Shown here piece after piece: positions 3,730 to 29,305 of a stretch of 29,305 nt of DNA; position 1 is the first letter of the stretch, and each line of letters starts with the position of its first letter. The translations under genes and the position numbers were made by a program. The notes under the pieces are model-generated. The model was not told where the DNA came from, did not search any database, and saw only the letters and a list, made by a program, of their open reading frames with translations. Source of the stretch: an uncultured Eubacteriales bacterium (GTDB lineage: Bacteria; Bacillota; JAAYKD01). Location of the stretch: positions 1 through 29,305 of the forward strand of contig CAZAFY010000001.1 in NCBI GenBank assembly GCA_964484445.1. Direction: 5' to 3'.

Positions 3730-4651
3730 GGTTCTCACCTCCTGCCAAGAGAAATAGGAGTGCCATACGAATGGCGACACCATTGGTAACCTGTTCTTCG
3801 ATGGTCGATTGAGTCGAGTCTGCTACCGAAGTAGAAATTTCAACACCCCGATTCATCGGCCCCGGATGCATCACCAGTGCGTTTGGTTTGGCACGTTGTA
3901 AACGTTGTGAATCCAGTCCCCAAAAACTGTGATACTCGCGCACACTGGGAAATAAGCCTTTCTTTTGCCGTTCTAACTGCAAGCGCAAGACATTGATCAC
4001 ATCGGCATTCTCTAAAGCAGCATCGGTGTCATACGTAACATTCACACCCCAGGACTTTGCCTCAATGGGCATTAGTGTTTTGGGGCCGCACAAGGTCACT
4101 TCTGCACCGAATTTTTTCATAGCGTAAATATTTGAACGTGCAACGCGACTGTGGGCAACATCCCCTAAAATCACACATTTTTTACCTTCTAAAGAACCTA
4201 ATTTATCGAGCATGGTATAAAGATCCAGTAACCCTTGGGTGGGATGCTCATGCATACCGTCGCCGGCATTAATGACGCTGCAGGTTAAATGCTGAGCAAT
4301 AAAATGGGGAGCGCCTGAAGCACCATGGCGCATAACCAAGATGTCGGTGCCCAGTTGCTGGATGGTTCGTGCGGTATCACGCAAGGTTTCCCCTTTGACC
4401 ACACTGGAGGTGCTGGTAGTAACATTGATGACATCGGCACCCAAATATTTCCCCGCCAATTCAAAGGAGCTGCGGGTACGGGTCGAAGGTTCATAAAAGA
4501 GATTGACGACTACTTTCCCTCGTAATTGATTGGTTTTTTTGATCGGTTGCTCAATAATCCGCTTCATTTTTTTCGCTTCATCTAAAATCAAAGAAATTTG
4601 TTCGCGACTCATCTGTTCCAAACCCAGAACATCCTTACCGATTACGCTCAT
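3722..4651 (-). CDS. pyrB: Aspartate carbamoyltransferase catalytic subunit
   Basis: [43 protein letters not shown]. Start ATG 4651 preferred (AAAGGA upstream). Confidence 0.97.
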
Positions 4652-4702
4652 TGTACCATCATCCTTTCTGCGATACATCTATGGAGTTTAAAAAAGTGCA
4701 AC

Positions 4703-4849: not shown

Positions 4850-4893
4850 GCATAAATTTCGAGTAGAAACCTAAGGGAATAATGGATTCACGC

Positions 4894-4922
4894 TTGACAA
4901 AAATTTGTGCTTCCCTTACAAT
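4894..4922 (+). promoter_or_regulatory. Sigma-A promoter of rubrerythrin
   Basis: TTGACA-17 nt-TACAAT. Confidence 0.8.
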
Positions 4923-4928
4923 AATTAG

Positions 4929-4943
4929 TGATAACTATTCTCA
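4929..4943. promoter_or_regulatory. Fur/PerR-family operator candidate
   Basis: TGATAACTATTCTCA matches 12 of 14 defined positions of TGATAATnATTATCA, just downstream of the -10 of a peroxide-defence gene. Confidence 0.6.
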
Positions 4944-4962
4944 AAAACAAGGAGGAACGACA

Positions 4963-5502
4963 ATGGAATTGAAAGGTTCAAAGACCGAACAAAATTTACA
5001 AACTGCGTTTGCAGGCGAATCCATGGCGACCAACAAGTATTCCTACTATGCTTCTCAAGCCAAAAAAGATGGCTTCGTCCAAATCTCCGAAATCTTTGCC
5101 GAAACATCCGGCAACGAACGCGAACATGCCAAACTGTGGTTCAAATTACTACATAATGGTGGCGTTCCCGATACTCTAACCAACTTAAAAGATGCTGCCG
5201 CCGGCGAAAATTATGAATGGACCGATATGTACGCCGGTTTTGCAAAGACCGCCAAAGAAGAAGGCTTTGCAAAAATTGCTTACTTGTTTGAAGGCGTTGC
5301 CAATATTGAAAAGCACCACGAAGAACGCTATTTAAAATTAGCAAAGAATATTGAAGATGCAAGCGTCTTCAAAAAGAATGAAGTCGTAGCTTGGCATTGC
5401 ATCAACTGTGGCCACATTGTCAAAGCAGTCAATGCACCTGCATTATGTCCGGTATGTGATCATCCTCAGGCTTTCTTCAAAGTTCACTCTGCCAATTACT
5501 AA
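4963..5502 (+). CDS. rbr: Rubrerythrin
   Basis: [12 protein letters not shown]...AFAGES, di-iron E/ExxH motifs ([14 protein letters not shown]), C-terminal rubredoxin CINC...CPVC. Start ATG 4963 with GGAGG RBS. Confidence 0.95.
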
Positions 5503-6581: not shown

Positions 6582-6595
6582 TCCGTCAGAATGAT

Positions 6596-6613
6596 TGGTG
6601 AAAAAAAGCACAA
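6596..6613. promoter_or_regulatory. Rex operator candidate 3 (downstream of the -10)
   Basis: TGGTGAAAAAAAGCACAA, 11/14 match, followed by a further TTCACAA half-site. Confidence 0.5.
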
Positions 6614-6642
6614 TTTTGATTCACAAAAGGAGGATATTTTCA

Positions 6643-7125
6643 ATGGCTTGTTCTAGCCTTCAGTCCAAATTTCAAGAATTGGATCATTATATTGACAACT
6701 TATCCATTTCCGATAAAGGCTCTGCCTTGATTCCGGTTCTTCACAAAGCACAAACGATTTTCGGTTATCTCCCCCAAGATGTCCAGGCTCATATTGCGGA
6801 ACGTTTAGACGTTTCTACTGCAAAAGTCTATGGTGTGGTCAGCTTTTATACCTTCTTTACCATGGAACCCCGCGGGAAATTCAACATCAGCGTCTGCTTG
6901 GGAACTGCTTGCTTTGTTGGTGGAGCCGATGCCGTGCTGAAAGAATTTGAAAAAGTTCTTCAGATCAAAAGTGGTGAAACCACACCGGATTTCAAATTTT
7001 CCATCATCCCGGTTCGCTGCGTAGGCGCTTGCAGCTTAGCTCCGATCGTTATGATCAACGACAAAGTGTATCCCAGGGTGAAGGTCAGCGAAGTAGCTCA
7101 TATTCTTGCAGAGTATGAAGAGTAG
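6643..7125 (+). CDS. hydC: NAD-linked [FeFe]-hydrogenase gamma subunit (NuoE-like, 2Fe-2S)
   Basis: LIPVLHKAQ..FGYLP, VYGVVSFY, CLGTAC...CVGAC. Start ATG 6643 after AGGAGG. Confidence 0.92.
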   Translation: MACSSLQSKFQELDHYIDNLSISDKGSALIPVLHKAQTIFGYLPQDVQAHIAERLDVSTAKVYGVVSFYTFFTMEPRGKFNISVCLGTACFVGGADAVLKEFEKVLQIKSGETTPDFKFSIIPVRCVGACSLAPIVMINDKVYPRVKVSEVAHILAEYEE

Positions 7126-7136
7126 GAGGAAGTAGC

Positions 7137-9053
7137 ATGGAACGAATATTAACTTTTGATCAATTAAAACAATTCTATGAGTCCGTTAGATACCAAACCA
7201 ATATGCGCTTACATCCTCTGAATCAAGCACCTGATTTTGTGCAATTACCGGAAGCGTATCGTAAAGAAACTAAAATGCGTCATGTTATGGTCTGTGCCGA
7301 TACCGGCTGTGCTGCTTCACATTCCGTTGGCATAGCCGATAAACTCGAGCAAGCAATTGCACGCTACGGCTTACAAGATCAAGTGATTGTGGTAAAAACC
7401 GGTTGTTTTGGTTTGTGTTCCCAAGGCCCGATCGCGGTCATTCATCCTGAACGGATCATGTACACACAACTTAAAGCCGAACATGTCGAAGAAATCGTGC
7501 GTGATCATTTGCGCGACGGTCATTACGTTGAACACCTCTTATTGGGTGCCCGCGAGGGTGCTCCGACTACACAATACGATAACGTTGATTTTTTCAGAAA
7601 CCAAGTCCGCATTGCCACCCGAAACTGCGGTGTAATCAATCCCGCTAGTCTGGAAGAATATATTTCACAAAAAGGCTACTTAGCCTTAGGAAAATGCATT
7701 CACGAAATGACACCCGACCAAGTCGTGGAAACCGTGAAACAATCCGGTTTGCGCGGTCGAGGCGGGGCAGGATTTCCCACCGGTCTAAAATGGGGCTTTA
7801 CTGCCATTGAAAAAGAAGATCAAAAGTATGTCTGCTGTAACGCCGACGAAGGCGACCCCGGTGCATTTATGGATCGTTCTGTCCTTGAAGGGGATCCCCA
7901 TTCTGTATTAGAAGCCATGGCTATTGCTGGTTATGCAATTGGTGCAAACATGGGTTTCATCTATATTCGTGCGGAATACCCCAGTGCAATCCGTCGCCTG
8001 CTCTCCTCTATTGAACAAGCCAAAGCAGCCGGCTTATTGGGAGCCAATATCATGGGAAGTACCTTCTCTTTTGATATTGAACTCCGATTAGGTGCCGGAG
8101 CCTTTGTTTGCGGTGAGGAAACCGCACTAATCGCTTCTGTGGAAGGAAATCGAGGCGAGCCTCGCAATAAACCACCTTACCCTGCTTCCAAAGGAATCTA
8201 CGGCAAACCCACTGTCATCAATAATGTTGAAACCTTAGCAAATATTTGCCCGATCATCCTTAACGGACCCGAATGGTTCCGTTCAATTGGCACCGAAAGA
8301 AGTCCCGGTACCAAGGTTTTTGCCCTGGCCGGAAAAGTAAACAACGTTGGGCTCATTGAGGTTCCCATGGGTACTACCCTACGGGAAATTATATATGAGA
8401 TCGGCGGGGGTATCGTTGACAACAAACAACTTAAGGCAGTGCAAACAGGCGGTCCCTCCGGTGGTTGCATTCCAGCTCGCTACCTCGATACCCCAATCGA
8501 TTACGAATCCCTCCAGGTCATAGGTACCATGATGGGTTCCGGTGGTATGATCGTTTTAGATGAAACCGCTTGTATGGTCAATATTGCCAAGTTTTACTTG
8601 GAGTTCACAGTAGAAGAATCCTGTGGCAAATGCACTCCCTGTCGCTATGGCAACCACTATCTCCTCGATATCATGAACAAAATCACCAGCGGTAAAGGGG
8701 AACGTGAGGATTTAGATCGCCTTTTCAATTTGGGCGAAACCATTAAGCAAGCTTCTCTTTGTGGCTTAGGACAATCTTCACCGAATCCGGTTTTAAGTAC
8801 AATGCGTTATTTCCGCGATGAGTACTTAGCCCATATCGACGAAAAACGTTGTCCTGCCGGTGTTTGCAGCGATTTACTTCAATACCATATCGTGCCGGAG
8901 CTCTGTATCGGTTGTACGATTTGTGCTAAGAACTGCCCTGTGCAATGCATCAGCGGAAGCCTTCGCGAACCTCATGTGATCAATCAAGAAGCTTGCATCA
9001 AATGCGGCGTCTGCTTTACCAAATGCCCTAAGAAGGCAATCATCAGAAAGTAG
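7137..9053 (+). CDS. hydB: NAD-linked [FeFe]-hydrogenase beta subunit (NuoF-like, FMN/NADH)
   Basis: N-terminal thioredoxin-like 2Fe-2S (CADTGC, GCFGLC), GLRGRGGAGFPTG, NADEGDPGAFMDR, GAGAFVCGEET, ESCGKCTPCR, C-terminal 2x[4Fe-4S]. Confidence 0.94.
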   Translation: MERILTFDQLKQFYESVRYQTNMRLHPLNQAPDFVQLPEAYRKETKMRHVMVCADTGCAASHSVGIADKLEQAIARYGLQDQVIVVKTGCFGLCSQGPIAVIHPERIMYTQLKAEHVEEIVRDHLRDGHYVEHLLLGAREGAPTTQYDNVDFFRNQVRIATRNCGVINPASLEEYISQKGYLALGKCIHEMTPDQVVETVKQSGLRGRGGAGFPTGLKWGFTAIEKEDQKYVCCNADEGDPGAFMDRSVLEGDPHSVLEAMAIAGYAIGANMGFIYIRAEYPSAIRRLLSSIEQAKAAGLLGANIMGSTFSFDIELRLGAGAFVCGEETALIASVEGNRGEPRNKPPYPASKGIYGKPTVINNVETLANICPIILNGPEWFRSIGTERSPGTKVFALAGKVNNVGLIEVPMGTTLREIIYEIGGGIVDNKQLKAVQTGGPSGGCIPARYLDTPIDYESLQVIGTMMGSGGMIVLDETACMVNIAKFYLEFTVEESCGKCTPCRYGNHYLLDIMNKITSGKGEREDLDRLFNLGETIKQASLCGLGQSSPNPVLSTMRYFRDEYLAHIDEKRCPAGVCSDLLQYHIVPELCIGCTICAKNCPVQCISGSLREPHVINQEACIKCGVCFTKCPKKAIIRK

Positions 9054-9066
9054 GAGGTTTCACCCT

Positions 9067-10809
9067 ATGTCAACGGTCAATCTGAGTATCAATGGCTTGC
9101 CTGTTTCTGTGGAAGCCGGCACCACCATTTTGGATGCAGCAAAAACAGTGGGTATCAAGATTCCCTCCTTATGCTATCTGCATTTACCCGATGTCGATGT
9201 TGTTTGTAAAAGTTCTTCCTGTCGTGTATGTTTGGTTGAAATCGAAGGACGCCGCAATTTAGCACCTTCTTGCTCGACCACAGTCGTAGAAGGCATGATC
9301 GTCAAAGCCGATACTGCTCGTGCTGTAGATGCTCGAAAAACCATGTTAGAACTGATGCTTTCGAATCATCCTCACAATTGTTTATTCTGCAAACGGCGCG
9401 AATCCTGTGAACTCAAGGCGTTATCGGCAGAAATGGGAATCGATGAACTTCCCTTTCAGGCTCCGGTGCCGGAAGCAGATCTCGACACCTCGAACTTCTC
9501 CATTATTCGAGACACCTCAAAATGTATTTTATGCCGTCGTTGTGAGACTGTTTGTACCGAAGTTCAAACGATGGGCATTTACTCGGGCGTAAACCGAGGG
9601 TTCGATACTCGTATCGACACAGCGTTCCATACTCCTATGATGAGTACGGCTTGCACCTTCTGTGGACAATGCGTAGCTATTTGCCCCACAGCAGCTCTGA
9701 CCGAAGTCGACAATACTCCTGCCGTCTTCAAAGCTTTACGTGATCCAAAGAAAACAGTCATCGTTCAGACCGCTCCTGCGGTTCGTGTGGCTTTGGGTGA
9801 AGAATTGGGCTACCCAGTCGGCACCAATGTAACCGGAAAAATGGTCACCGCTTTGCGACGTTTAGGCTTTGACAAAGTTGTTGACACCGACTTTACTGCC
9901 GACTTGACGATTATTGAAGAAGCTACTGAACTGATTCATCGCATCCAGAACAACGGCGTATTACCCATGATGACCAGCTGTTGTCCGGCTTGGATCAAAT
10001 TTTTAGAACATAAATTCCCGCATCTATTACCCCATTTATCGACTTGCAAATCTCCTCATGAGATGTTGGGAGCAGTAATCAAGGCGTTCTATGCTGAAAA
10101 GTTAAACGTCAAACTTGATGATCTCATCGTAGTCTCTGTCATGCCTTGTTTGGCGAAGAAATACGAGAACAATCGTCCCGAGCTAAGCGATGGAAAATAT
10201 CCCGATGTCGACATCGTAATTTCTACCCGCGAATTGGGAGCCATGATCAAACATTCCGGCCTACAATTCAAGAGTTTGCCGGACGCTGATTTCGACCGAC
10301 CCTTTGGCGAAAGTTCCGGTGCCTCCGTCATCTTTGGTACGACCGGTGGCGTAATGGAAGCTGCTTTACGTACTGCTTATGAAACCCTCACCGGCAGAAC
10401 ATTGGATCATGTTGAATTCGAAGAAGTGCGTGGCTTTGAAGGGATCCGATCCGGTAATGTTATGATCGGTGATTTAGAAGTTAAAGTAGCCATTGCTCAT
10501 ACCCTCAGAAATGCTCGTAAGCTCATGGAAGAGGTCGAAAATGGCACTGCTGATTATCATTTCATTGAAGTTATGGCTTGTCCGGGTGGATGCATTGGTG
10601 GAGGTGGTCAACCTTATCATCATGGAGAAATGGACACCTTGCGCAAACGGGCTGCTGCTCTCTACAGCGCAGATGAAGCCAAAGTCATCCGTCGTTCTCA
10701 TGAGAATCCCGATATCACGCGGTTGTATCAAGACTTCCTAGGAGAACCGAATGGACATCTAGCTCACGAATTGTTACATACCCACTACGTCAAAAGAAGT
10801 AAACACTAA
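9067..10809 (+). CDS. hydA: [FeFe]-hydrogenase catalytic alpha subunit (group A, multimeric)
   Basis: H-cluster motifs TSCCPAW, MPCLAKKYE, EVMACPGGCIGGGGQP; N-terminal 2Fe-2S, His-ligated 4Fe-4S (HPHNCLFC) and 2x[4Fe-4S]. Confidence 0.96.
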   Translation: MSTVNLSINGLPVSVEAGTTILDAAKTVGIKIPSLCYLHLPDVDVVCKSSSCRVCLVEIEGRRNLAPSCSTTVVEGMIVKADTARAVDARKTMLELMLSNHPHNCLFCKRRESCELKALSAEMGIDELPFQAPVPEADLDTSNFSIIRDTSKCILCRRCETVCTEVQTMGIYSGVNRGFDTRIDTAFHTPMMSTACTFCGQCVAICPTAALTEVDNTPAVFKALRDPKKTVIVQTAPAVRVALGEELGYPVGTNVTGKMVTALRRLGFDKVVDTDFTADLTIIEEATELIHRIQNNGVLPMMTSCCPAWIKFLEHKFPHLLPHLSTCKSPHEMLGAVIKAFYAEKLNVKLDDLIVVSVMPCLAKKYENNRPELSDGKYPDVDIVISTRELGAMIKHSGLQFKSLPDADFDRPFGESSGASVIFGTTGGVMEAALRTAYETLTGRTLDHVEFEEVRGFEGIRSGNVMIGDLEVKVAIAHTLRNARKLMEEVENGTADYHFIEVMACPGGCIGGGGQPYHHGEMDTLRKRAAALYSADEAKVIRRSHENPDITRLYQDFLGEPNGHLAHELLHTHYVKRSKH

Positions 10810-19341: not shown

Positions 19342-20457
19342 TTAGCCTTTTAACAGCTGTTTAAACATATCTACTGCTGTTGGAATGATATCATCGGGGA
19401 AGTCATATTCTTGACTGTGTAAAGGCGGATGCGCTTCGCCATTACCGACATAGAATATGGCTCCTTTGGTTTTCTTGGTAAAATAGCCAAAATCTTCGGA
19501 ACCGCGTGAAGCTTGGGGCAACTCAATACAATTCAAGCCTAACCTTGCTGCAGCATTTCGAACCTTGTCAGCACTTTCGGTGTGATTATAGGTCTCTGGA
19601 AAAACATCGTGTTCTTGCCATTCAAAGGTGAGTTGTTCTTTCTGTGCTTGTTTTATCGCTAAGGCTACGAGCAGTTCTTGCAATGTCTCCATTTCTTCTT
19701 CCTTTTCAGCACGGATCGTCATCAACAACTCTCCTCTGCCGGGTGAAACACCAAACGCTCTTTCTCCCACATCTACATGGACTACAGTGCAAAAAGCCGG
19801 TTTTGCAAACGGATGTTCCTTCAAAAGTATGGGAATGCTACGAATGACTTCAGCAATGGCAAACACCGGATTTCTCCCCAATTCAGGAGTGCTGGCATGG
19901 GTTGTAGCCCCGGTAAAAGTGAAGATCAATCCCTTCGAAGCAAAATGACTTACCCCGTTACGAATCCCAATAGCGTGCTTCGGTAAGCCACTTACATTGT
20001 GAAAAGCAAAGATTTCCTTGATCTTCAAGGCTTCGATCACCTCTGCACAGACCATGGCACCGGCACCGATCTCCTCTGCATGTTGAAAAATAAAGACCAC
20101 TGACCGATCAGCACCCAACTGATCGATTTCCCAAGCAAAAGCAGCTAAGACTGCTGCATGCCCGTCATGACCACACTGATGTGCTACACCGGGATTTATT
20201 GATTTATAGGAGACAGAGGATCGTTCTTCAACAGCTACTGCATCGTAATCCGCACGAAAGGCAATTGTTGGTTTTGCTGATTCCGCATGATACAAAGCAT
20301 AAAACCATGACCCTTGGTCCACCACTTGAAGTTTGGTATGTTCTTTCAAGAAATGAATCAGTCTCTTTTTTGTTTCAACTTCTCTTAAAGAGAGCTCCGG
20401 ATTTTGATGTAATTCCCGACGCAGGCTAACGATTGCTTTCAGATTGTCTTCATTCAT
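19342..20457 (-). CDS. M20D-family amidohydrolase
   Basis: LHQNPELS..E, RADYD, HQCGHDGH, QHAEE, THASTP, SEDF, LH. Confidence 0.9.
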   Translation of the reverse strand: MNEDNLKAIVSLRRELHQNPELSLREVETKKRLIHFLKEHTKLQVVDQGSWFYALYHAESAKPTIAFRADYDAVAVEERSSVSYKSINPGVAHQCGHDGHAAVLAAFAWEIDQLGADRSVVFIFQHAEEIGAGAMVCAEVIEALKIKEIFAFHNVSGLPKHAIGIRNGVSHFASKGLIFTFTGATTHASTPELGRNPVFAIAEVIRSIPILLKEHPFAKPAFCTVVHVDVGERAFGVSPGRGELLMTIRAEKEEEMETLQELLVALAIKQAQKEQLTFEWQEHDVFPETYNHTESADKVRNAAARLGLNCIELPQASRGSEDFGYFTKKTKGAIFYVGNGEAHPPLHSQEYDFPDDIIPTAVDMFKQLLKG

Positions 20458-20571: not shown

Positions 20572-21417
20572 TCAATAAAGGAAATTCACACTTAAGTCCA
20601 AAGCTTTAACACTGTGGGTCAGTGCTCCTATGGAGATCAGATCGACTCCGGTTTGCGCTACAGCTCGTAAGTCTTTTCTACCCATGTTTCCGGAAGCTTC
20701 TGTTAACGCCCTGCCCTTGATCCAGTCTACTGCCTCTGTCATTTGGTCCAAGCTCATATTATCGAGTAAAAGAATGTCCGCACCTGAATCAATCGCTTCT
20801 TTGACCTGTTCAAAGTTCTCTACTTCTACTTCGATTTTCATTGTGTGAGGACTCTTGATCCGTGCCGAAGTTACCGCTGCGGTGATCCCACCGGCTGCTC
20901 GGATGTGGTTATCTTTGATCAAAATGCCGTCAGCCAAATTAAACCGATGATTAAAACCTCCACCAATGCGCACCGCATATTTTTCAAAAAAGCGCAGACC
21001 CGGGGTTGTTTTTCGAGTATCGATGATTTTGCAGGGTAACCCTTCAATTTGCTTGACTGCAGATTTAGTGGCAGTTGCGACGCCCGACAATCTCTGCAAT
21101 AAGTTTAGGGCAACCCGTTCACCGGTCAGCAAACTACGAGCCGGTCCTTGCAATTCCGCCAAAACTTGTCCCGGTTCCACCGAAGCTCCTTCTTCAACCA
21201 AAAGCTTTACATTAATACTTTCATCGAGGAGGAAGAAAACACGTTTGAACAATGGAAGGCCGCACAAAACCCCTTCGTCTTTGGCTAACAGATGAGCCTG
21301 CACCCAACTGTCATCGGGAACTGTAGTGTTGGTAGTTAAGTCACCCTGGCCAATATCCTCTTGTAAAACTTGCCAGAGAAAGGTATCAATGAATCGATTC
21401 ATCTTTAATGGAGTCAT
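20572..21417 (-). CDS. nadC: Nicotinate-nucleotide pyrophosphorylase (quinolinate phosphoribosyltransferase)
   Basis: EDIG.GDLT, ERVALN, DTRKTTPG, HRFNL.DGILIKDNH, EVEV, LLDN, EASG. Confidence 0.97.
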   Translation of the reverse strand: MTPLKMNRFIDTFLWQVLQEDIGQGDLTTNTTVPDDSWVQAHLLAKDEGVLCGLPLFKRVFFLLDESINVKLLVEEGASVEPGQVLAELQGPARSLLTGERVALNLLQRLSGVATATKSAVKQIEGLPCKIIDTRKTTPGLRFFEKYAVRIGGGFNHRFNLADGILIKDNHIRAAGGITAAVTSARIKSPHTMKIEVEVENFEQVKEAIDSGADILLLDNMSLDQMTEAVDWIKGRALTEASGNMGRKDLRAVAQTGVDLISIGALTHSVKALDLSVNFLY

Positions 21418-21438
21418 ATCTAGTCCTCGTTTCTTCCT

Positions 21439-22353
21439 TTAGCCAAGATTCATCATTCTGGTAACAGAATGGGTAGCCTTTTCCAAAATGTGTTTGTCGA
21501 TTTCAATAATGAAACGATTCTTTTCTAGTGAAGCTTCGATTGAAACCAAAGAGGTGCGTTTCATACTAGGGCAAATCATTCCCGAATGAACCGGGTAAAA
21601 TTCCTTCAAGGGGGATCGATTTTGCATTTGGTGTATAATTCCCATTTCCGTACCAATAATAAACGACTTCGCTTTGGAAGTTCGAGCAAATTCGATCATT
21701 TGTGATGTACTACCAATAAAATCAGCCGCATCACAGATTTCAGGCTTGCATTCAGGATGCACTAAAAACAATGCATTCGGGTGTTCGCTTTTCGCTTCCT
21801 GGACATGATTTAAGGTCACATGATGATGCGTAGGACAAAAACCATTGCTGAAGAAAAACTCTTTATCGGGGCAATGCCGCGCTACATACTGGCCTAAATT
21901 TTGGTCCGGTACAAAGATGATCTTTCTCTCCGATAAAGACCGCACCACTCGAATGGCATTGGCTGAGGTGCAGCAAATATCGCTAACGGCTTTGACCTCG
22001 ATCGAAGAATTCACATAACAAACTACTGCTGCATCGGGATGCGCCACTTTCAATGCAAGCACATCTTTGGCTGTCACCATGTTCGCCATGGGGCAACCGG
22101 CATTAGGATCCGGTATTAAAACTGTTTTATCCGGATTCAAAATCTTGGCTGTCTCTGCCATGAAGCTAACACCGGCAAAAACAATGACGTCCGCCTTTGT
22201 GTCTCGAGCATGTTTGCTAAGTTCTAAGGAGTCACCAACAAAATCAGCAACATCCTGGACTTCCGGTGGTTGGTAGAGATGTGCCAAAATGACTGCATTC
22301 CGTTCTGATTTTATCTTGCGGATGTTTTTGGCGAGGATTCGATTTCGATTCAT
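21439..22353 (-). CDS. nadA: Quinolinate synthase A
   Basis: LAHLYQ, GDSL.L, FMAETAK, three 4Fe-4S Cys (GCPMA, CPTH, CPSMK), HPEC. Confidence 0.96.
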   Translation of the reverse strand: MNRNRILAKNIRKIKSERNAVILAHLYQPPEVQDVADFVGDSLELSKHARDTKADVIVFAGVSFMAETAKILNPDKTVLIPDPNAGCPMANMVTAKDVLALKVAHPDAAVVCYVNSSIEVKAVSDICCTSANAIRVVRSLSERKIIFVPDQNLGQYVARHCPDKEFFFSNGFCPTHHHVTLNHVQEAKSEHPNALFLVHPECKPEICDAADFIGSTSQMIEFARTSKAKSFIIGTEMGIIHQMQNRSPLKEFYPVHSGMICPSMKRTSLVSIEASLEKNRFIIEIDKHILEKATHSVTRMMNLG

Positions 22354-22919
22354 CTGCTCACACGCTCCTCTTGAGAACTCCCAGATTGAGGCGTTTCCAC
22401 CAACAACCCTGCTTTGTGCAATTTACTTTCAATAGTATTCATCGTTTCTTCGTCTGGAGTCTCCACCGTATGCAGGTGATTTCCATTGGTGACAGCTGAG
22501 AGCATTAGGGAACGGCTGGATTTGGCTCTTTCCAACCAAGTATCAACCATGTCGATCGTCGACAGCATTAGGTTGCCTGTGATTTCTCCATAGATTGGAT
22601 GTTCAACCATGACATCACGTACTTTACCGCCGTTTTTGACAATGATCTTCAGCTCTTGCTCGGCTTGGTCTAGGGTTTCATGATAACAATTCAAAACCTT
22701 AATGAATCTCTGTTTTGTTGTTTCTCGAATCAGAAGATATCCCGATGTCGTTGAAACCAAGGGTAATCCTCCTGCTCGCAAGATTGCAATATCTTGCACA
22801 ATCACCTGGCGAGTAACCCCTAACAATTGTGCTAATTCACTTCCGGTTATCGGCTTATCTGAAGTTTGAAGATATTCTGTTATTTTTGATCTCCGCTGAT
22901 TGGCATCCATCATCCTCAT
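22350..22919 (-). CDS. niaR: Niacin-responsive repressor (HTH + 3H domain)
   Basis: GSELA..LGVTRQVIVQDIAILR, HE, VEHPIYG, HLH. Stop overlaps the nadA start (ATGA). Start ATG 22919 (22913 and 22910 also possible). Confidence 0.92.
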   Translation of the reverse strand: MRMMDANQRRSKITEYLQTSDKPITGSELAQLLGVTRQVIVQDIAILRAGGLPLVSTTSGYLLIRETTKQRFIKVLNCYHETLDQAEQELKIIVKNGGKVRDVMVEHPIYGEITGNLMLSTIDMVDTWLERAKSSRSLMLSAVTNGNHLHTVETPDEETMNTIESKLHKAGLLVETPQSGSSQEERVSR

Positions 22920-22946
22920 ATTCCATCCTCTCTTTTTTCTGACTTC

Positions 22947-22975
22947 ATTATAGTCATTGCCACTCCTCTTGTCAA
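22947..22975 (-). promoter_or_regulatory. Perfect-consensus sigma-A promoter of niaR-nadA-nadC
   Basis: TTGACA-17 nt-TATAAT on the minus strand. Confidence 0.9.
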
Positions 22976-22993
22976 CAGATGTATATACAGGTG
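22976..22993. promoter_or_regulatory. NiaR operator candidate
   Basis: Palindrome CAgaTGTATATACAggTG with a TGT-N4-ACA core, abutting the -35. Confidence 0.7.
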
Positions 22994-23051
22994 ACAACTA
23001 AAGCTGAATAACGACAAAATCAGCAAATGAAGGAATATTGTTGAGAAAAAC

Positions 23052-23103: not shown

Positions 23104-23805
23104 ATGAAAATTAGAAAACGCGTTTGGCTTGTTCTGCTGCTAGTTGTTGTATTTTTAGCTGGCTGTCAACAACAACCAACCCCAAATACACCCGAAGACC
23201 CAGAGGGCCCGGAGGTTCCGGAGTTTGAATACACACTCATGGATGAAACCACCCCCATGGAAGAAGGGTTACCCGGCCTGCTCGATTATGTAAAAGACAT
23301 ACCGGGGTATTTGATCCACACAACCGAAACCACAAATTACCTGATCATCAACATGGGTGAAAAACCTACCGGAGGATTTGCTTTAGAAGTGGACTCGATT
23401 AACCTTGTGGGTGGTGAATTAGGGATCACTCTGAAGGAGATCTCACCCAAGCCCGGTGATGCAGTCACCGAAGCATTGACATATCCGCAACTTGTGCTCC
23501 TCTTTAACGAAGAAGTCACCGCTGCTCGTATTGAGAGTGACCAGGAGACTGTTTATGAAGCCCTTGATATCACTTTGAAAACCGATAGCGGTCGTTACCA
23601 AGGCTTAAGCGAAGATTTTGAACTACAAATCAAAATCAGTGGTGTACCCGACGAAATTCCCGCAAAAGTATTCGCTTTGACCCCCCTCCAAGAGGAGATC
23701 ATTCCGCAAATGAAACTGCTAAAAGACTACGAAGTACTATTCTATTACGTAGAGCGAACAGATGAGCTACCGATCATTGTTGAACTCTCCCCTATGGGGA
23801 AATAG
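23104..23805 (+). CDS. Lipoprotein with PrcB C-terminal-like domain
   Basis: Signal peptide with lipobox FLAG-C21, Pro/Glu linker, MGEKPTGGF...PKPGDAVTEALTYP motif. Confidence 0.75.
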   Translation: MKIRKRVWLVLLLVVVFLAGCQQQPTPNTPEDPEGPEVPEFEYTLMDETTPMEEGLPGLLDYVKDIPGYLIHTTETTNYLIINMGEKPTGGFALEVDSINLVGGELGITLKEISPKPGDAVTEALTYPQLVLLFNEEVTAARIESDQETVYEALDITLKTDSGRYQGLSEDFELQIKISGVPDEIPAKVFALTPLQEEIIPQMKLLKDYEVLFYYVERTDELPIIVELSPMGK

Positions 23806-23851: not shown

Positions 23852-24637
23852 TTAATCGGGTATATGAATCGTTCCTTCTAAATATAGAACCGCTTCTCCG
23901 GAAAGTTTGATTCGTTCTCCCATATTGGCACAGATGATTTTACCGCCTCTCAAGGAACGCTGATACGCTAAAAATTCAGTTTTCCCTAAAACTCTGCTCC
24001 AATAAGGAACCAAACTGCAATGTGCCGAACCGGTTACCGGGTCTTCATCTACACCCATTTTAGGAGCAAAATACCGAGAGACAAAATCTCCTTTATCTCC
24101 TTTAGCGGTTACGATTACCCCATGGGCATCCAGTTTTTTCAGCTCTTGAAAATCCGGCTGAAGTCGCAAGATGTCCTCTTCTTTTTCATAGACCGCCAGA
24201 TAATTATACCCTTTTTGTACTTCTATAGGTCTTTTACCTAATCCCTTGATCAAAGCTTCCGGAGCTGTGCTACGGGTAGTTTCTTTCGGTGGAAACAACA
24301 TGGTCAAGAGTTTACCCTCTTTAAAAACCATAAGGATTCCTCCCTTGGTGAAGAAGGTTATGTTGGAACGTTTGGGTTCAATAAAACTCAAAATCACAAA
24401 AGCGGTCGCCAAGGTTGCGTGCCCGCAAAGCTCTACTTCTCCTTTTGGAGTAAACCATTTTAAATCATAATCGTCTCCTCGACGCACAAAAAAGGCAGTC
24501 TCCGATAAATTGTTTTCTGCAGCGATCTTCTGCATGGTTTCATCGGGTAACCACTGTTCCAAAGGGCATACTGCAGCCGGATTTCCCCGGAACAATTGAT
24601 TGGTGAAAGCGTCGACTTGATAGATAGGAATCTTCAA
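23852..24637 (-). CDS. PhzF/DAP-epimerase-superfamily protein
   Basis: YQVDAF...GNPAAV, NLSETAF, FTP..EV.LCGHATLA, SRYFAP..GVDEDPVTGSAH. TTG start with GGAGG RBS. Confidence 0.92.
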   Translation of the reverse strand: MKIPIYQVDAFTNQLFRGNPAAVCPLEQWLPDETMQKIAAENNLSETAFFVRRGDDYDLKWFTPKGEVELCGHATLATAFVILSFIEPKRSNITFFTKGGILMVFKEGKLLTMLFPPKETTRSTAPEALIKGLGKRPIEVQKGYNYLAVYEKEEDILRLQPDFQELKKLDAHGVIVTAKGDKGDFVSRYFAPKMGVDEDPVTGSAHCSLVPYWSRVLGKTEFLAYQRSLRGGKIICANMGERIKLSGEAVLYLEGTIHIPD

Positions 24638-24708: not shown

Positions 24709-24737
24709 AATTTAGCACTTTTTCCCTTGCGCGTCAA
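24709..24737 (-). promoter_or_regulatory. Sigma-A promoter candidate for the PhzF-like gene
   Basis: TTGACG-17 nt-TAAATT on the minus strand. Confidence 0.5.
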
Positions 24738-24800: not shown

Positions 24801-24830
24801 AAAAAAAGAAGCTACCCTTATTTGGGTAGC
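24801..24830 (-). terminator. Terminator of the five-gene operon
   Basis: GCTACCC/GGGTAGC stem with a U-rich tail on the minus strand, just after the cupin stop. Confidence 0.75.
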
Positions 24831-24842
24831 CTCTGCTTTACC

Positions 24843-25190
24843 TTAAATATCCCCTCTGGGTGGTACGACACAGACAAATTTCAGATTGTCTTTACCAGCG
24901 TTTCTGATCTGGTGGCTAGCATTATCGGGGACAACAATCGAATTACCAAAGCCTATGTTTTCTTCTTTTCCTTCTAAGTCGAGCACCCCTTGACCTTCTA
25001 CCACAAACATATATTGTGGCCAAGGATGTTGATGTTTGGGTGTATAACCGCCCGGTTCGATCTCGAAGAATCGCATCACATAATCCGGCCACCCGTTCCA
25101 GGGACCGATCATGGATTTTTTGTGCACCGCACTGGCTCCGTTGCTGTCATACAGCACCTCTTTAACGTTTTGAATGTGATCTAGGGACAT
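24843..25190 (-). CDS. Cupin_2-domain protein
   Basis: MRFFEIEPGG.TP.HQHPW....V.EG.G and G....VP....H...N cupin motifs. Confidence 0.88.
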   Translation of the reverse strand: MSLDHIQNVKEVLYDSNGASAVHKKSMIGPWNGWPDYVMRFFEIEPGGYTPKHQHPWPQYMFVVEGQGVLDLEGKEENIGFGNSIVVPDNASHQIRNAGKDNLKFVCVVPPRGDI

Positions 25191-25219
25191 ATGCTTTCTC
25201 CTCTCTCTATCTTCTTTTT

Positions 25220-26686
25220 TTAGGATTTCTCATAAGGGTTGGGAATGGCGGTAGCTGAAATATCGTATAAGCCTTCGTATGACTGGAAGGCTTTGATCTT
25301 CTTCTCACCCACCCGATTTTGCAGTTCTTCAAACGCCTTCTCGGCATCTTTTAGAATCTGCTTTTCATCACAAAGCAGCATTTTTCGATTCTCCATCATA
25401 ACTTCACCATCAACAATAACTGTATCAACATCTTGGCCTTGCGCATGATACACTAAACGCTGTACCGGCATGATGCCAAAAGGTGCCAAGTGAGGTTGCT
25501 GGGTATTGACAATGATTACATCTGCTTTTTTGCCTTTTTCTAAAGAACCGATTTGATGATCCAGTCCAAAAGCTTTGGCGACCCGAATACTGCACATCTC
25601 CAAAACGCGTCCCGGAGGAGCTAAGAGGGTGTCATGTTCGTGAGCTCGATGTAGAACCTGGAAAATTTTCATATCGCGCCAAATGTCATAGCTACGATCA
25701 GGCGCTGTTCCGTCTGTAACGATCACGACTTCCCCACCTGCTCTTAAGACTTCATAAACCGGACAGCGATTCTTTATGTTGGCTCTGGTGGTTGGGCCAT
25801 GGAATAAAACGGCACCTGTTTCAGCAAAGATTTCAATCTCTCTCTCGCTTAAACCGGTTGAGTGGGTCAAGGACGTGGTTGGTCCCAAAATCTCCGGCGT
25901 TGTATCATAAACAAATTGTAATCCGCCCCCATAAACATGGGTATGCAAAGGCGTGTTATACTCTTTTGCAATCCGGCTCATGGCACGGTTCTTCCAAATG
26001 GCAAATTCACGGGTATCTCCGGCTACTTCACTAATCCCTAAATTTCCCGGGGCGACCACACAGATCTGTCGTTTGTGTTTTCCGTTCAAGTGTTTGACGC
26101 TGTATTCGGTGTTTTGCACCATTTGCTCGGGTGTAAATACTGTTTCAGTGGGTTTTCCGTTTTTCCAAACCCAGGGATTTTTCGGCCAGGGACCTTCGCA
26201 GGAACCAATGCCTGAAATCTGACGGATCCCCGTTTTCAAAGAACCTTCAAAATGCGCTTCCAAGTTTGGAATATGATCCGGCCTGGGGGTACTGCCAAGC
26301 ATGGAAACACCGGTCGTAATCCCGAATTTTAAGCGTTCTGCTGCTGCTAAAGCTCCTTCCGCATACCAAAAAAACTCATCGGTGTAATGGAAATAGAGAT
26401 CTTCTGCCATGGATCCCCACCAGCCACCGGTTTTGGTATCACTACTTTCAGACATCGTTTTCAACAAGCAATGTCCTGCGTGGCCGTGACCATCGATCAA
26501 CCCAGGCATAACAGCTAATCCGGTTGCATCGATGACTTTCTTCGCTGCAAATTCATTCGGTAAATCAGACATTGGTCCAATTGCAACAATGGTTTCACCC
26601 TGAATCGCTACATAGCCGGGCTGATACACATGATGCTCGGCATCGACGGTAATAACGGTTCCGTTTTTGATCAAAATATCAAACAT
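25220..26686 (-). CDS. Metal-dependent amidohydrolase (MTA/SAH-deaminase / chlorohydrolase-like fold), substrate unknown
   Basis: MPGLIDGHGH, GITT, HTH, TH, TDG, GSLEKGKKAD, VDTVIVDG. Confidence 0.88.
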   Translation of the reverse strand: MFDILIKNGTVITVDAEHHVYQPGYVAIQGETIVAIGPMSDLPNEFAAKKVIDATGLAVMPGLIDGHGHAGHCLLKTMSESSDTKTGGWWGSMAEDLYFHYTDEFFWYAEGALAAAERLKFGITTGVSMLGSTPRPDHIPNLEAHFEGSLKTGIRQISGIGSCEGPWPKNPWVWKNGKPTETVFTPEQMVQNTEYSVKHLNGKHKRQICVVAPGNLGISEVAGDTREFAIWKNRAMSRIAKEYNTPLHTHVYGGGLQFVYDTTPEILGPTTSLTHSTGLSEREIEIFAETGAVLFHGPTTRANIKNRCPVYEVLRAGGEVVIVTDGTAPDRSYDIWRDMKIFQVLHRAHEHDTLLAPPGRVLEMCSIRVAKAFGLDHQIGSLEKGKKADVIIVNTQQPHLAPFGIMPVQRLVYHAQGQDVDTVIVDGEVMMENRKMLLCDEKQILKDAEKAFEELQNRVGEKKIKAFQSYEGLYDISATAIPNPYEKS

Positions 26687-26705
26687 GGGTTCTCACTCCT
26701 TCTAG

Positions 26706-27176
26706 TTATAGAGTTTGAAGTTGGTCCAAAATCTCAAAGATCTCTTCACTCTCGGGAATATCTTGCATCGAATTACCGTAGTGAGCAAAGCGAAGGACCC
26801 CTTGCTTATCGATCAACATTTGAGCAGGCATCCGACCTAATTTTAGCAATTTGACTTCTTGACCATAAAGATTCAGAACCTGTTTTTGCTCGTCGGGTAA
26901 GCCGATGAAGGGGAGTTGGTTCTTCTCCCAGTAGTTTTTAAAAGCGGAGGCATTTTCGGGGCCAAGCACAACAATGACGGTATCTCTTTTAGTAAATTGC
27001 TCGAATTCTTGACGCAACTGCGCCATATGCTTTTGGCAAAAGGGTCAGATAAATCCCCGGTTAAACACCACTAAGATATGGGACTTCCCTTGGTACTTTG
27101 AGAGTTCAAATAATTCTCCGTTGAAATCGGGTAAAGAAAAGTTTGGGGCCTGCATGTTTACGTCTAATCTTGCCAT
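26706..27176 (-). CDS. Peroxiredoxin-like (AhpC/TSA, PRX_like2) protein, probable selenoprotein with UxxC (TGA 27047-27045 = Sec44; 156 aa)
   Basis: AGGAG RBS before ATG 27176; MARLDVNMQAPNFSLPDFNG..FELSKYQGK.HILVVFNRGFI-[TGA]-PFCQKHMAQ... is in frame with ORF 26706-27026. The TGA is the first position of the CxxC motif. Confidence 0.88.
27010..27025 (-). promoter_or_regulatory. Candidate bacterial SECIS
   Basis: Minus strand UGGCGC-AGUU-GCGUCA; the apical loop starts 26 nt after UGA and has G as its second base followed by U. Confidence 0.65.
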
Positions 27177-27187
27177 ACCATTCACTC

Positions 27188-27637
27188 CTAACTTTTTTCT
27201 GGTTCCTCGTTTTTTGCAACGATTTGATTCAAGGATGCACTGATCGGTTCACGGGTGAATTCTTGTCCGACCAGTTCCTGGATCACAATTTCACCTACGA
27301 AGAGGATTCTGCTTTCTTCTAAATGCCCAGCTACGGCTTGTTTATCATCGGATACAACAACGTGAACATGCGGCTGCCCCTCGGCAATAAATCCTTGGAG
27401 TGCGACCACCTCTAAAGGCACATCATTCCATTCCGGATATACGAAGACCGGAGGTTGACTGACATTGATCGCTGTTTTCAAGCGACAATGATCGAAACTG
27501 GCAATTCCGGAAGCAATATAGCCGTTTTTTAGATCAGCTTGATCGATCACTAAACGTAGACTCTCCATAACATAATCTCCCGGGTTTAGTCGAACTACTA
27601 TGGTACGACCCGGTTTAGCTTGGTCATAAAATTTCAT
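27188..27637 (-). CDS. DUF296 / PPC-domain protein
   Basis: IVVRLNPGD, ASGIASF, LEVVALQGFI, PHVHVVVSD...VAGHL, EIVI. Start ATG 27637 (AGGAGG 8 nt upstream). Confidence 0.85.
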   Translation of the reverse strand: MKFYDQAKPGRTIVVRLNPGDYVMESLRLVIDQADLKNGYIASGIASFDHCRLKTAINVSQPPVFVYPEWNDVPLEVVALQGFIAEGQPHVHVVVSDDKQAVAGHLEESRILFVGEIVIQELVGQEFTREPISASLNQIVAKNEEPEKS

Positions 27638-27660
27638 ATGCAACACCTCCTTGTTTTAAT

Positions 27661-28986
27661 TCAATAACTAACGTTTTTTCCCCTTCTTGTCGTAATAGCA
27701 ACTTTCAAAATCCCCAAAATCGGCAGTAACCAAAGATAAATCGCCCAAGGAATGGCGGCATAAGATGCGCCCAATAAACTCAACGGTATCGCGCAAGCGG
27801 TGTTCCAAGGAATTAACCCGGCAATCGTGACCGTGGTGTTAGACATATCGAGCATCATTTGTGTATCCGACAAGTTTCTTCTCACATAGAGAGGTTTGAT
27901 CAATTGTGCTTCTAAAATCAATGATAAGGTTTGATTACAAGCAATCGCCGAAACCGGTACGCTGGTCAAGGCCATCACTGGGAACACTCCAATGCTTTGC
28001 GCCCAAATCTCCAGCCTTTTCCAGAGATCCGAGAGCATGTTGGTCCCTTTGAGGATACCGGAAAAAGTGGCTGAGATTAGTATAATTAGAATCGCGTTTT
28101 TCATACTCCACATACCGCCACCTTGAAACATTTTCAAAGCAATATTTTCGGTGGTGTAGCCGGTGAGCAATGCTTTTAGAATTGATGACAAGGGTTGCTG
28201 TTGGATCCATGCAGCTAAAATAAACCCAATGCCAATACTTACCGCCATGGCATCTCGAATTTTTACCTTCAAAAAAGGAGCAACCAAGATGACAAACACC
28301 GGAAGCAACAACCACGGTGATAATGTCACCTGTTGTGCTATGCTTTGACTCATATTTTGAGAAGCTGCTTTCAACGGAAAAATCAAACTTAAACCTGCGT
28401 ATGTAGCGGTCACCACGGCCATGGGGAGAATGGTGTCCTTTAGCATATGTTTAACATTGTCATAAAGTTCCGTAGACGTGAGAAAAGCGACTAGATTGGC
28501 ACAGCTGGAAGCCGGGCTGGCCCGATCACCAAAATAAGCTCCAGAAACTACCGCTCCGGCCGTGATCAGCGGACTTACTCCTCCTGCTTCGGCCAAGACC
28601 ATGAGTACGACCCCGATCGTTCCGCAGGTACCAATACTAGTCCCAATCAGGTACGATACCGCCGAAGAAAGCAAAAAGGCTAACAGGATAAACGTTTTCG
28701 GGGCAATCAGTTGAATCCCATAGTAAACCAAGTAAGGTATGGTTCCGCTGATCCGCCAGATTCCGGTCATCGCACCAATCAGTAACAAAATGCGAATCAC
28801 AATGAAACTATCGCGGATGCCTCTACCCATCATCGGTACGATTTCTTTGAGAGGATGCCCTTCCCATAGTGCTGCCACAAAAAACGCAACCGCTCCAGCT
28901 GACAAGCCAAAGAGAATGCTATAACCAAAAATCACACAAAAAAAGATCGCTCCAATTAGAACCGACAACGCAAATAGAAATGGCAT
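27661..28986 (-). CDS. NhaC-family (IT superfamily) transporter
   Basis: Multi-TM protein; GTIPYL.YYG, IGTSIGT.GTIGV, GAVVSGAYFGDR.SP.S, LIPW motifs. Start ATG 28986 or TTG 29007, uncertain. Confidence 0.85.
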   Translation of the reverse strand: MPFLFALSVLIGAIFFCVIFGYSILFGLSAGAVAFFVAALWEGHPLKEIVPMMGRGIRDSFIVIRILLLIGAMTGIWRISGTIPYLVYYGIQLIAPKTFILLAFLLSSAVSYLIGTSIGTCGTIGVVLMVLAEAGGVSPLITAGAVVSGAYFGDRASPASSCANLVAFLTSTELYDNVKHMLKDTILPMAVVTATYAGLSLIFPLKAASQNMSQSIAQQVTLSPWLLLPVFVILVAPFLKVKIRDAMAVSIGIGFILAAWIQQQPLSSILKALLTGYTTENIALKMFQGGGMWSMKNAILIILISATFSGILKGTNMLSDLWKRLEIWAQSIGVFPVMALTSVPVSAIACNQTLSLILEAQLIKPLYVRRNLSDTQMMLDMSNTTVTIAGLIPWNTACAIPLSLLGASYAAIPWAIYLWLLPILGILKVAITTRRGKNVSY

Positions 28987-29103
28987 AGACTTGTCGCCTA
29001 CTTTCAAAAAAATAGCTTCTTCGTGGCATTATGGAATACTAATTGTTCATATTCTTCTAAGAATCCTTCTCTGTATCCAATTCTCACAAAATCCGTTTTT
29101 CTC

Positions 29104-29132
29104 TTGCCAATTCGCTACAAGACTCGTATAAT
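29104..29132 (+). promoter_or_regulatory. Sigma-A promoter candidate
   Basis: TTGCCA-17 nt-TATAAT. Confidence 0.7.
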
Positions 29133-29180: not shown

Positions 29181-29305
29181 ATGTTGTTAACCGATGTCTT
29201 TACCCCTTCTCGCTTTACATCTGAGGGCAGTATCATGCTCCGCGGTGTAAAAGTTCCTTATCACACCGTTTGCGAGGACAATGTGTTCTATGCCGACGAT
29301 GGCAA
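29181..29305 (+). CDS. Partial CDS (right edge); weak resemblance to the N-terminus of bacterial S10 serine carboxypeptidases
   Basis: GAGGAGG RBS; MLLTDVFTPSRFTSEGSIMLRGVKVPYHTVCEDNVFYADDG, open to the window end. Product is a guess from about 41 aa. Confidence 0.5.
   Translation, partial: MLLTDVFTPSRFTSEGSIMLRGVKVPYHTVCEDNVFYADDG

Follow-up and report, generated by a model that had tools for sequence, protein, structure and literature searches.

A lineage-restricted five-gene unit with a predicted UxxC selenoprotein in an uncultured Eubacteriales bacterium

Does a tight row of five genes, one of them carrying an in-frame UGA codon, encode a single conserved pathway, or a local assembly of parts that exist independently elsewhere? 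This question is raised by a locus on contig CAZAFY010000001.1 of an uncultured Eubacteriales bacterium; all coordinates given here refer to the 29,305-nucleotide (nt) stretch of this contig that was analyzed, hereafter called the window. A reading made from the letters alone (the sequence-only reading) had proposed that the five genes import and break down one small molecule, with a thiol/selenol redox step provided by a selenoprotein. We find that the parts of the operon are of known kinds and that their combination is new and restricted to one lineage; it is not a conserved new pathway.

Anatomy of the unit and its UxxC selenoprotein

The five open reading frames (ORFs) follow one another head to tail along the minus strand, from 28986 to 24843. 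The first encodes a NhaC-family secondary transporter (27661..28986; 441 amino acids (aa) from its ATG, or 448 aa from an alternative TTG start at 29007; Pfam Na_H_antiporter, E-value (E) = 1e-38) and is followed by genes for a PPC/DUF296 protein (27188..27637; 149 aa; Pfam PCC, PF03479, E = 2e-16), a peroxiredoxin (Prx)-like redoxin of the AhpC/TSA type (26706..27176; 156 aa), a metal-dependent amidohydrolase (25220..26686; 488 aa; Pfam Amidohydro_1, E = 2e-26) and a TM1459-like, single-domain Cupin_2 protein (24843..25190; 115 aa; Pfam E = 2e-17). The intergenic gaps are, in operon order, 23, 11, 19 and 29 nt, and Shine-Dalgarno sites (AAGGAGG, AGGAG, GAAGGAG and GAGAGGAG) precede the four downstream genes. 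An intrinsic terminator (24834..24807, minus strand; 11-bp stem with 6 G-C pairs, 6-nt loop and a tail of seven Ts) begins 8 nt past the cupin stop codon. It is the sole strong intrinsic terminator in the region; all other promoter- and terminator-like matches within the unit are weak, and shuffled sequence gives at least as many. An Rfam scan (gathering thresholds for the whole window, E ≤ 1 for the operon) revealed no riboswitch, leader or selenocysteine insertion sequence (SECIS) family, its only match in the operon, to Phe_leader, being a spurious one that falls on the terminator. The anatomy is that of an operon-like polycistronic unit, and the five genes are probably co-transcribed. On these points the sequence-only reading was correct: five co-oriented genes with gaps of about 11-29 nt, a ribosome-binding site on each downstream gene and one closing terminator were all confirmed, as were its five domain calls (Pfam, E 1e-16 to 1e-38). 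None of the five proteins reaches an equivalog cut-off in NCBIfam.

The redoxin gene contains an in-frame TGA at 27045..27047 (minus strand), a candidate selenocysteine (Sec) codon. Reading through it gives a product with the sequence FNRGFI-U-PFC (motif U-P-F-C) and a full AhpC/TSA domain (PF00578, E = 3e-21; PF08534, E = 3e-18), whose top NCBIfam match is 'SelL-related redox protein', with a score under the cut-off of that family. A search with the Cys version of the protein found 1653 relatives. The codon could be read in 77 metagenomic loci of the family, where it is TGA in 75 and TGC (Cys) in the other two. Full-length homologues in the databases carry Cys or Trp at this position, the Cys forms including P0137 and P0167; the Trp presumably arose through translation of TGA under a code in which it means Trp.

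A predicted SECIS hairpin occupies 27008..27027 on the minus strand, with a core stem at 27025..27010 (UGGCGC / GCGUCA) and the apical loop AGUU at 27019..27016. The stem begins 22 nt after the U of the UGA, and the bSECISearch model accepts distances of 16-37 nt for bacterial elements. The position of the hairpin is identical in 77/77 loci of the family, with the general form UGGCGC-AGUU-GCGYCA. Over the 74 distinct sequences, 99% of the stem cells are paired, compared to 25-57% when the 3′ partners are shifted along. Covariation is seen in two neighbouring stem pairs (G-C to A-U and C-G to U-A), with a score reached by none of 500 shuffles, and these compensatory changes also alter the encoded peptide (MAQLRQ to MMQLHQ). 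It should be noted that the post-UGA segment of the window, folded alone, was no more stable than shuffled sequence (z = 0.11); the SECIS element is thus convincing because of the family-wide comparison, and not because of single-sequence folding.

Two further comparisons bear on this gene. The 43 codons 5′ of the TGA are under purifying selection, with 0.16-0.24 nonsynonymous substitutions per site (dN) and saturated synonymous sites (dS) in comparisons of the window with loci L002, L078 and L087 (described in the next section). In addition, contigs of other organisms in three sequencing runs match the window only over approximately 27007..27053, and the UGA/SECIS stretch is therefore highly conserved at the nucleotide level. 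The 29-kb window contains no tRNA or sel genes. The selenoprotein call of the sequence-only reading is borne out by the distribution of TGA and TGC codons and by the covarying hairpin: to judge from these comparisons, the UxxC redoxin is a genuine selenoprotein with its recoding signal, and a new member of the already known Prx-like thiol:disulfide oxidoreductase (UxxC) selenoprotein family. The description of the Sargasso Sea selenoproteome includes a UXXC-containing 'Prx-like protein' (PMC1088965), and Table 1 of a 2026 review (PMC13188914) places the family among the prokaryotic selenoproteins 'predicted with high confidence'. The present analysis yields, as a by-product, a well-supported SECIS consensus for it.

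In public protein sets this selenoprotein family is present in miscalled form. Most of the best-scoring 120 clusters consist of 5′-truncated ORFs of 103-110 aa that start at the Met just 3′ of the TGA, i.e. Sec genes that have been called short, and in several full-length entries the Sec codon appears as Trp. Miscalled entries include P0136, P0140, P0141, P0145 and others, as well as P0152 and P0173-P0255, and the misannotation is systematic.

Divergence within the selenoprotein gene is itself uneven. Compared with L001 (7511-7981), the closest relative by amidohydrolase identity, the gene in the window (26706-27176) has a dS of 0.12 upstream of the UGA and of 0.98 downstream, a jump suggestive of a recombination breakpoint close to the SECIS element. 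A dense patch of differences was also seen at 26315-26381, in the amidohydrolase gene, in contigs of runs X1 and X3; the samples behind runs X1-X3 are groundwater, wastewater and mixed culture.

Conservation of the gene order

The order NhaC-PPC-selenoprotein-amidohydrolase-cupin turned out to be rare. A scan anchored on the amidohydrolase, using one genome per species, returned 74 loci, only two of which have it: L001, from a metagenome-assembled genome (MAG) of an uncultured Eubacteriales bacterium with a 96% identical amidohydrolase, and L002, from a Bacillota MAG (84%). A PPC-anchored scan added L078 (89% identity), which repeats the whole five-gene operon plus its flanks; across these three loci amidohydrolase identity is 84-96%. 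The full order is also present in L086, and the contig of L087 ends after the selenoprotein gene, but these two look like duplicate records of L001 and L002, leaving two or three close relatives. Since the order recurs in genomes whose synonymous sites are saturated, it is not a chance arrangement.

Beyond these close relatives the set comes apart. L005 has only PPC-amidohydrolase-cupin, without transporter or selenoprotein, at 64-72% identity (72% for the amidohydrolase), and L003 and L004, with amidohydrolases at 78% identity, lack the partner genes. Most of the remaining amidohydrolase loci (L003-L074) have unrelated, often housekeeping, neighbours; those of the closest orthologues encode SerRS, ParB, an M17 peptidase, a GNAT protein and a creatininase. 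A search for a recurrent amidohydrolase partner across the 74 loci (tblastn, clustering and Pfam annotation of 90 co-oriented neighbours) returned only a loose excess of assorted transporters. The peroxiredoxin next to the amidohydrolase relative in L031 was considered and set aside as coincidental, being an ordinary BCP/PrxQ protein with a TPGC motif.

The transporter and PPC genes travel further together. The NhaC-PPC pair is kept in L075 (a MAG labelled Negativicutes), L076, L077 and L083-L085 at 61-67% identity (NhaC 61-66%). The downstream set of this lineage, seen in L075, L076 and L083, encodes an S51 peptidase and an adenylating enzyme of 428 aa that resembles F390 synthetase; upstream of the pair is a gene for a protein resembling PaaY / gamma-carbonic anhydrase. 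A divergent S10-like carboxypeptidase gene lies beside the pair in L075 and L076, the contigs of L077 and L083-L085 ending before that point; the adjacency of PPC to this gene is the only feature common to every related locus that reaches so far. The flanking NadA, NadC and NiaR proteins are 58-68% identical between the lineages, about the same as NhaC and PPC, an indication that the pair descended vertically while the genes downstream of it were replaced. From these comparisons, the region appears to be syntenic by descent, with exchange of its central gene content. More distant PPC proteins (40-47% identity) occur in other catabolic-looking operons, of the types ABC transporter-PPC-glyoxalase and GntR-BKACE-PPC-metallo-beta-lactamase-IlvD/EDD.

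A third comparison was anchored on the selenoprotein. If L086 and L087 are set aside, full-length homologues of NhaC, PPC, the amidohydrolase or the cupin adjoin none of the family's 78 other loci; the only match of this kind is a short, weak cupin-like one near the selenoprotein gene of L088. The usual neighbours are genes for DUF4345 proteins, alpha/beta hydrolases and glyoxalases.

By this comparative evidence, NhaC-PPC is the most stable pair of the operon, and NhaC-PPC and PPC-amidohydrolase-cupin are its recurring sub-modules. The five-gene set appears to be restricted to one narrow lineage, rather than conserved across phylogenetically diverse genomes, and the selenoprotein is probably a lineage-specific addition to it. 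The linkage assumed by the sequence-only reading therefore holds among close relatives and fails in L005, in L075, L076 and L083, in most amidohydrolase loci and in the 78 selenoprotein loci.

Possible roles of the proteins and of the operon

The AlphaFold2 model of the amidohydrolase (pLDDT, the predicted local distance difference test, of 93) has as its top structural matches AtzA, methylthioadenosine/S-adenosylhomocysteine (MTA/SAH) deaminases, TrzN, and isocytosine and guanine deaminases (20-22% identity, template-modelling score of about 0.76, probability 1.00), so that an ATZ/TRZ/cytosine-deaminase-like fold can be confidently predicted. Its NCBIfam matches all fall far under their cut-offs. 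The family alignment shows no variation at H67, H69, H248, H250, H275, H296 and D325, and the family motif is PLHTHxYGG, without the Glu of the HxxE motif: in a profile alignment AtzA H243 lies opposite H250 and the catalytic E246 of AtzA opposite G253, and the catalytic Glu of the MTA/SAH deaminases aligns to an insertion that is absent from this family. Because the HxxE Glu is missing, the chemistry of the characterised relatives is not transferable to this enzyme. The family comprises 1067 proteins at E ≤ 1e-20, spread over Oscillospiraceae, Lachnospiraceae, Christensenella, Intestinimonas, Anaerovoracaceae, Solobacterium and even Sutterella. An exact look-up of the window protein in an assembly index returned no record.

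Several side observations concern this Glu-less subfamily. It is widespread among Clostridia of the gut and rumen, where the gene mostly stands alone, and tandem duplicates occur in L011 and L062. In L166 (6001-7926) a relative is fused to a PNPOx-like FMN-binding domain and followed by a gene for a 3-methyladenine DNA glycosylase. We did not adopt the role in modified-base metabolism hinted at by this fusion, which was seen in one or two cases only.

The PPC protein has a His triad (H90, H92 and H105) that is invariant in an alignment of 13 relatives. The closest solved structures (best E = 2.8e-13) are PH0802, VCA0587 and a 'putative DNA-binding protein', all of them from structural genomics and uncharacterised. 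At E ≤ 1e-10 the family has some 324 clusters, most of which comprise stand-alone proteins of around 145 aa; in the close PPC subfamily, none of the longer members tested has a redox-domain fusion or any extra domain. The only functionally characterised bacterial DUF296 protein that we found in the searchable literature is LmiA of enterohaemorrhagic Escherichia coli, a positive virulence regulator and putative DNA-binding protein with a putative Zn site formed by His85, His87 and His101 (PMC7667037); bacterial DUF296-glutaredoxin fusion proteins have also been reported (PMC2679010).

The carrier scores 208.5 bits against TIGR00931 (cut-off 370) and 138 against ArcD (cut-off 650); its sequence thus places it in the NhaC superfamily (PF03553) only, and it is predicted to be equivalent to neither NhaC nor ArcD. 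For the cupin, the closest solved structure is the Mn cupin TM1459 (E = 1e-15), deposited as an 'uncharacterized protein'; the gene also follows the amidohydrolase in L001, L002, L005, L078 and L086.

How might these parts work together? Our preferred explanation, a tentative one, is that the operon is a mosaic: a lineage-restricted unit for uptake and C-N hydrolysis that accreted at a variable chromosomal spot, with the selenoprotein as an accessory. The spot would lie between the conserved S10-like carboxypeptidase gene and the PrcB / NiaR-NadA-NadC block. Its core would be the NhaC-family carrier and the three-His PPC/DUF296 protein, with downstream enzymes that differ by lineage; in the lineage of the window these would be the Glu-less ATZ/TRZ-type amidohydrolase and the TM1459-like metal cupin, with the UxxC selenoprotein inserted between PPC and amidohydrolase. 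The carrier may import a small N-containing organic solute, such as an amino-acid- or peptide-derived compound, a modified base or a heterocycle, and its PPC partner may help to bring this nitrogenous solute in, or respond to it. The amidohydrolase would then cleave a C-N bond using a catalytic arrangement unlike that of characterised deaminases and dechlorinases, the cupin and PPC acting as metal-dependent accessory enzymes, unless PPC is a regulator. The selenoprotein could serve as a co-expressed general thiol-disulfide reductant or protector, and not as an obligatory step of the pathway. The direction of transport, the class of substrate and the role assigned to each protein are all inferred. 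Peptidase-rich surroundings (the S10-like gene upstream, an M20 peptidase at 19342..20457 and the S51 peptidase of the alternative gene set) would fit amino-acid- or peptide-derived or other C-N compounds.

A number of points count against the mosaic explanation. The carrier could be a plain ion antiporter. No convincing sigma-70 promoter for the operon was found in the 173-nt S10-NhaC intergenic region, and a comparison of this region across loci showed conservation of the S10 promoter only, with no convincing operon promoter or operator-like palindrome. Among public RNA runs, one mixed-culture metatranscriptome has contigs of about 2x depth on PPC, amidohydrolase, S10 and PrcB, a weak sign that the region is transcribed; these contigs are few, lack strand information, may include DNA and are uninformative on transcript structure. 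The related loci all come from one family-level clade with shared synteny, and retention of NhaC-PPC could reflect phylogenetic inertia rather than function. Lastly, the selenoprotein gene sits close to its neighbours (11 and 19 nt) and has been kept across lineages in which dS is saturated, which speaks against its being only a passenger.

This last point is what one would expect if the five genes formed one dedicated pathway, with the UxxC selenoprotein carrying out an obligatory thiol/selenol step on the imported substrate (a disulfide or sulfur compound, for example) or on a pathway enzyme. The gene is wedged between those for PPC and the amidohydrolase with its own ribosome-binding site, UGA and SECIS are intact in L001, L002, L078, L086 and L087 though dS is saturated, and the DUF296-glutaredoxin fusions cited above hint at a link between PPC and thiol oxidoreductases. 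We consider a dedicated pathway quite unlikely, since in L005 the PPC gene directly adjoins that of the amidohydrolase, the cupin gene comes next and there is no redoxin gene, such a gene is likewise absent from the other lineage's NhaC-PPC loci, the 78 other selenoprotein loci never adjoin full-length homologues of these genes, and the longer PPC proteins tested yielded no redox domain. At the level of the claim that had been made, the operon-like organization and the true selenoprotein stand, and the conserved pathway with an integral redox step does not. The statement that the combination is not a described pathway was upheld by a literature search, which found none with these genes; the proposed class of substrate (an S- or N-heterocycle or a disulfide) is not directly supported.

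Might the genes instead be functionally unrelated, piled up at an insertion-prone spot and sharing a promoter and terminator only? The content between the S10 gene and NiaR does differ in each lineage, and the amidohydrolase and the selenoprotein are each widespread in other contexts. The 78%-identical amidohydrolases of L003 and L004 are without partners and the 72%-identical one of L005 has them, and the recombination signs in the selenoprotein gene would also fit. Counting against such a collection are the uniformly tight spacing, a ribosome-binding site per gene and a single terminator, the recurrence of PPC-amidohydrolase-cupin in L005 and of NhaC-PPC in another lineage, and the intact frames of all five genes in close relatives, the selenoprotein gene being under measured purifying selection; we judge it unlikely. 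By analogy to LmiA, whose putative Zn ligands are spaced as H90/H92/H105, PPC could also be the operon's own DNA-binding regulator, and the unit could then serve in stress or detoxification (efflux or ion exchange plus a redoxin, with hydrolases that attack a damaged metabolite or a xenobiotic) rather than nutrient uptake. No other regulator is encoded in the operon, and the Rfam scan returned no riboswitch; structural relatives of the amidohydrolase include xenobiotic dechlorinases and damaged-base deaminases, and sequence relatives occur fused to a PNPOx-like domain, beside a 3-methyladenine glycosylase gene. This, too, seems rather improbable: the PPC gene is internal to the operon, neither upstream nor divergent, the promoter region has no conserved operator-like palindrome, the PPC relative in L081 belongs to an operon already holding GntR regulators, and the solved structures are annotated only as 'putative DNA-binding'.

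The mosaic explanation can be taken one step further. NhaC-PPC, beside the divergent S10-like gene, might be a conserved uptake module in which the three-His PPC protein partners the carrier or the downstream enzymes, for example as a metal-dependent enzyme or substrate-processing factor, and into which lineage-specific enzyme sets are plugged, the PPC of the window working with the selenoprotein. We regard this as speculative and rather improbable. Were it true, it would give a first physiological role to in-operon bacterial DUF296 proteins and a first context-defined role to a Prx-like selenoprotein. Bacterial DUF296/PPC proteins, TM1459-like cupins and Prx-like UxxC selenoproteins are large families without an established physiological function, and the operon offers a concrete, testable context for all three, and for the Glu-less Clostridia amidohydrolase subfamily. 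The NhaC-PPC pairing offers a practical way into DUF296 function, and the Glu-less amidohydrolases are a second useful lead. With the five-gene set found only in a few close relatives, and its parts occurring elsewhere in independent contexts, the operon looks assembled from independently mobile parts; it does not amount to the discovery of a conserved pathway, and hence is a modest lead of limited general significance.

Genomic surroundings and comparison with known systems

The divergent S10-like serine carboxypeptidase gene upstream of the operon (29181..29305, plus strand; product starting MLLTDVFTPSRF) is cut by the end of the window, and its product has 479 aa in relatives. A promoter-like site for it, TTGCCA-17-TATAAT, lies at 29104..29132. 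The orthologue in L001 (4067-5506) matches Pfam Peptidase_S10 (E = 1.5e-9) and has no NCBIfam match. The gene is upstream and divergent in all related loci that reach it (L001, L002, L005, L075, L076, L078, L086 and L087), and its copies are 81-100% identical to that of L001, above the 61-93% of the operon genes.

On the other side, just downstream of the operon terminator, is a PhzF-family isomerase gene (23852-24637, minus strand) with a promoter-like site TTGACG-17-TAAATT and an upstream TG at 24737..24709. It is convergent with a gene for a PrcB_C-domain protein (23104-23805, plus strand) whose product begins with a signal-peptide-like sequence. Both genes are kept in L001 and L078, and PhzF is absent from L005. 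The NiaR-NadA-NadC block for NAD biosynthesis follows (20572-22997, minus strand); its position relative to the S10 gene is unchanged even in the Negativicutes-labelled L075 and in L083, at 58-62% identity. The stretch between the S10 gene and this block thus has the appearance of a gene-exchange hot-spot.

Further away, a rubrerythrin gene (4882-5502, plus strand) and a HydABC-type set (6595-10809, plus strand), encoding a thioredoxin-like 2Fe-2S protein, a Nuo51-like flavoprotein and the large subunit of an [FeFe]-hydrogenase, indicate that the host is a strict anaerobe. Genes at 1364-4678 with carbamoyl-phosphate-synthase small-chain, dihydroorotase-like and aspartate/ornithine carbamoyltransferase domains probably serve pyrimidine biosynthesis. 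The window sequence, or one nearly identical to it, was found in groundwater, wastewater, mixed-culture, landfill and sludge metagenomes.

How do the five proteins compare with known systems? The carrier shares with the NhaC family (TC 2.A.35 in the Transporter Classification) the Na_H_antiporter domain, over residues 156-434, and the character of a polytopic membrane protein of about 440 aa. This family includes the malate/lactate antiporter MleN and riboswitch-linked amino-acid carriers of Firmicutes. The gene in the window differs from the latter in having no upstream riboswitch (Rfam), and its product lies under the equivalog cut-offs of both the ArcD arginine/ornithine antiporter and the NhaC Na+/H+ antiporter. 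Like TM1459-type Mn cupins, the cupin is a single Cupin_2 barrel (about 115 aa) in which both metal-binding motifs are present; the first of them, HQHPWPQ, has Gln where a Glu ligand is usual (as read by eye from the sequence).

The PPC protein shares with LmiA a putative three-His metal site of equal spacing (2/14), as judged from published residue positions. It has the PCC domain in common with PH0802, VCA0587 and the PPC domains of plant AHL proteins, although its sequence similarity to the solved structures is low. It is distinguished by the lack of an AT-hook and by being encoded within an operon, directly after a transporter gene.

The redoxin has in common with the Prx-like UxxC family the AhpC/TSA fold (PF00578), Sec at the first position of UxxC, the existence of Cys homologues and a bacterial SECIS hairpin just 3′ of the UGA. 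There is no substantive difference in the protein itself; what sets it apart from the 78 other family loci is its placement in a transporter/hydrolase operon.

The amidohydrolase, finally, finds its best sequence and structure matches in the ATZ/TRZ group (AtzA, TrzN and the MTA/SAH, isocytosine, 8-oxoguanine and guanine deaminases), with which it would share the (beta/alpha)8 fold and N-terminal beta-sandwich, the HxH motif (H67 and H69), H250, H275 and D325. It departs from this group in being only 20-22% identical, in the replacement of the HxxE Glu by Gly, and in an insertion of some 60 residues, estimated from the spacing of the motifs, between HxH and PLHTHxYGG.

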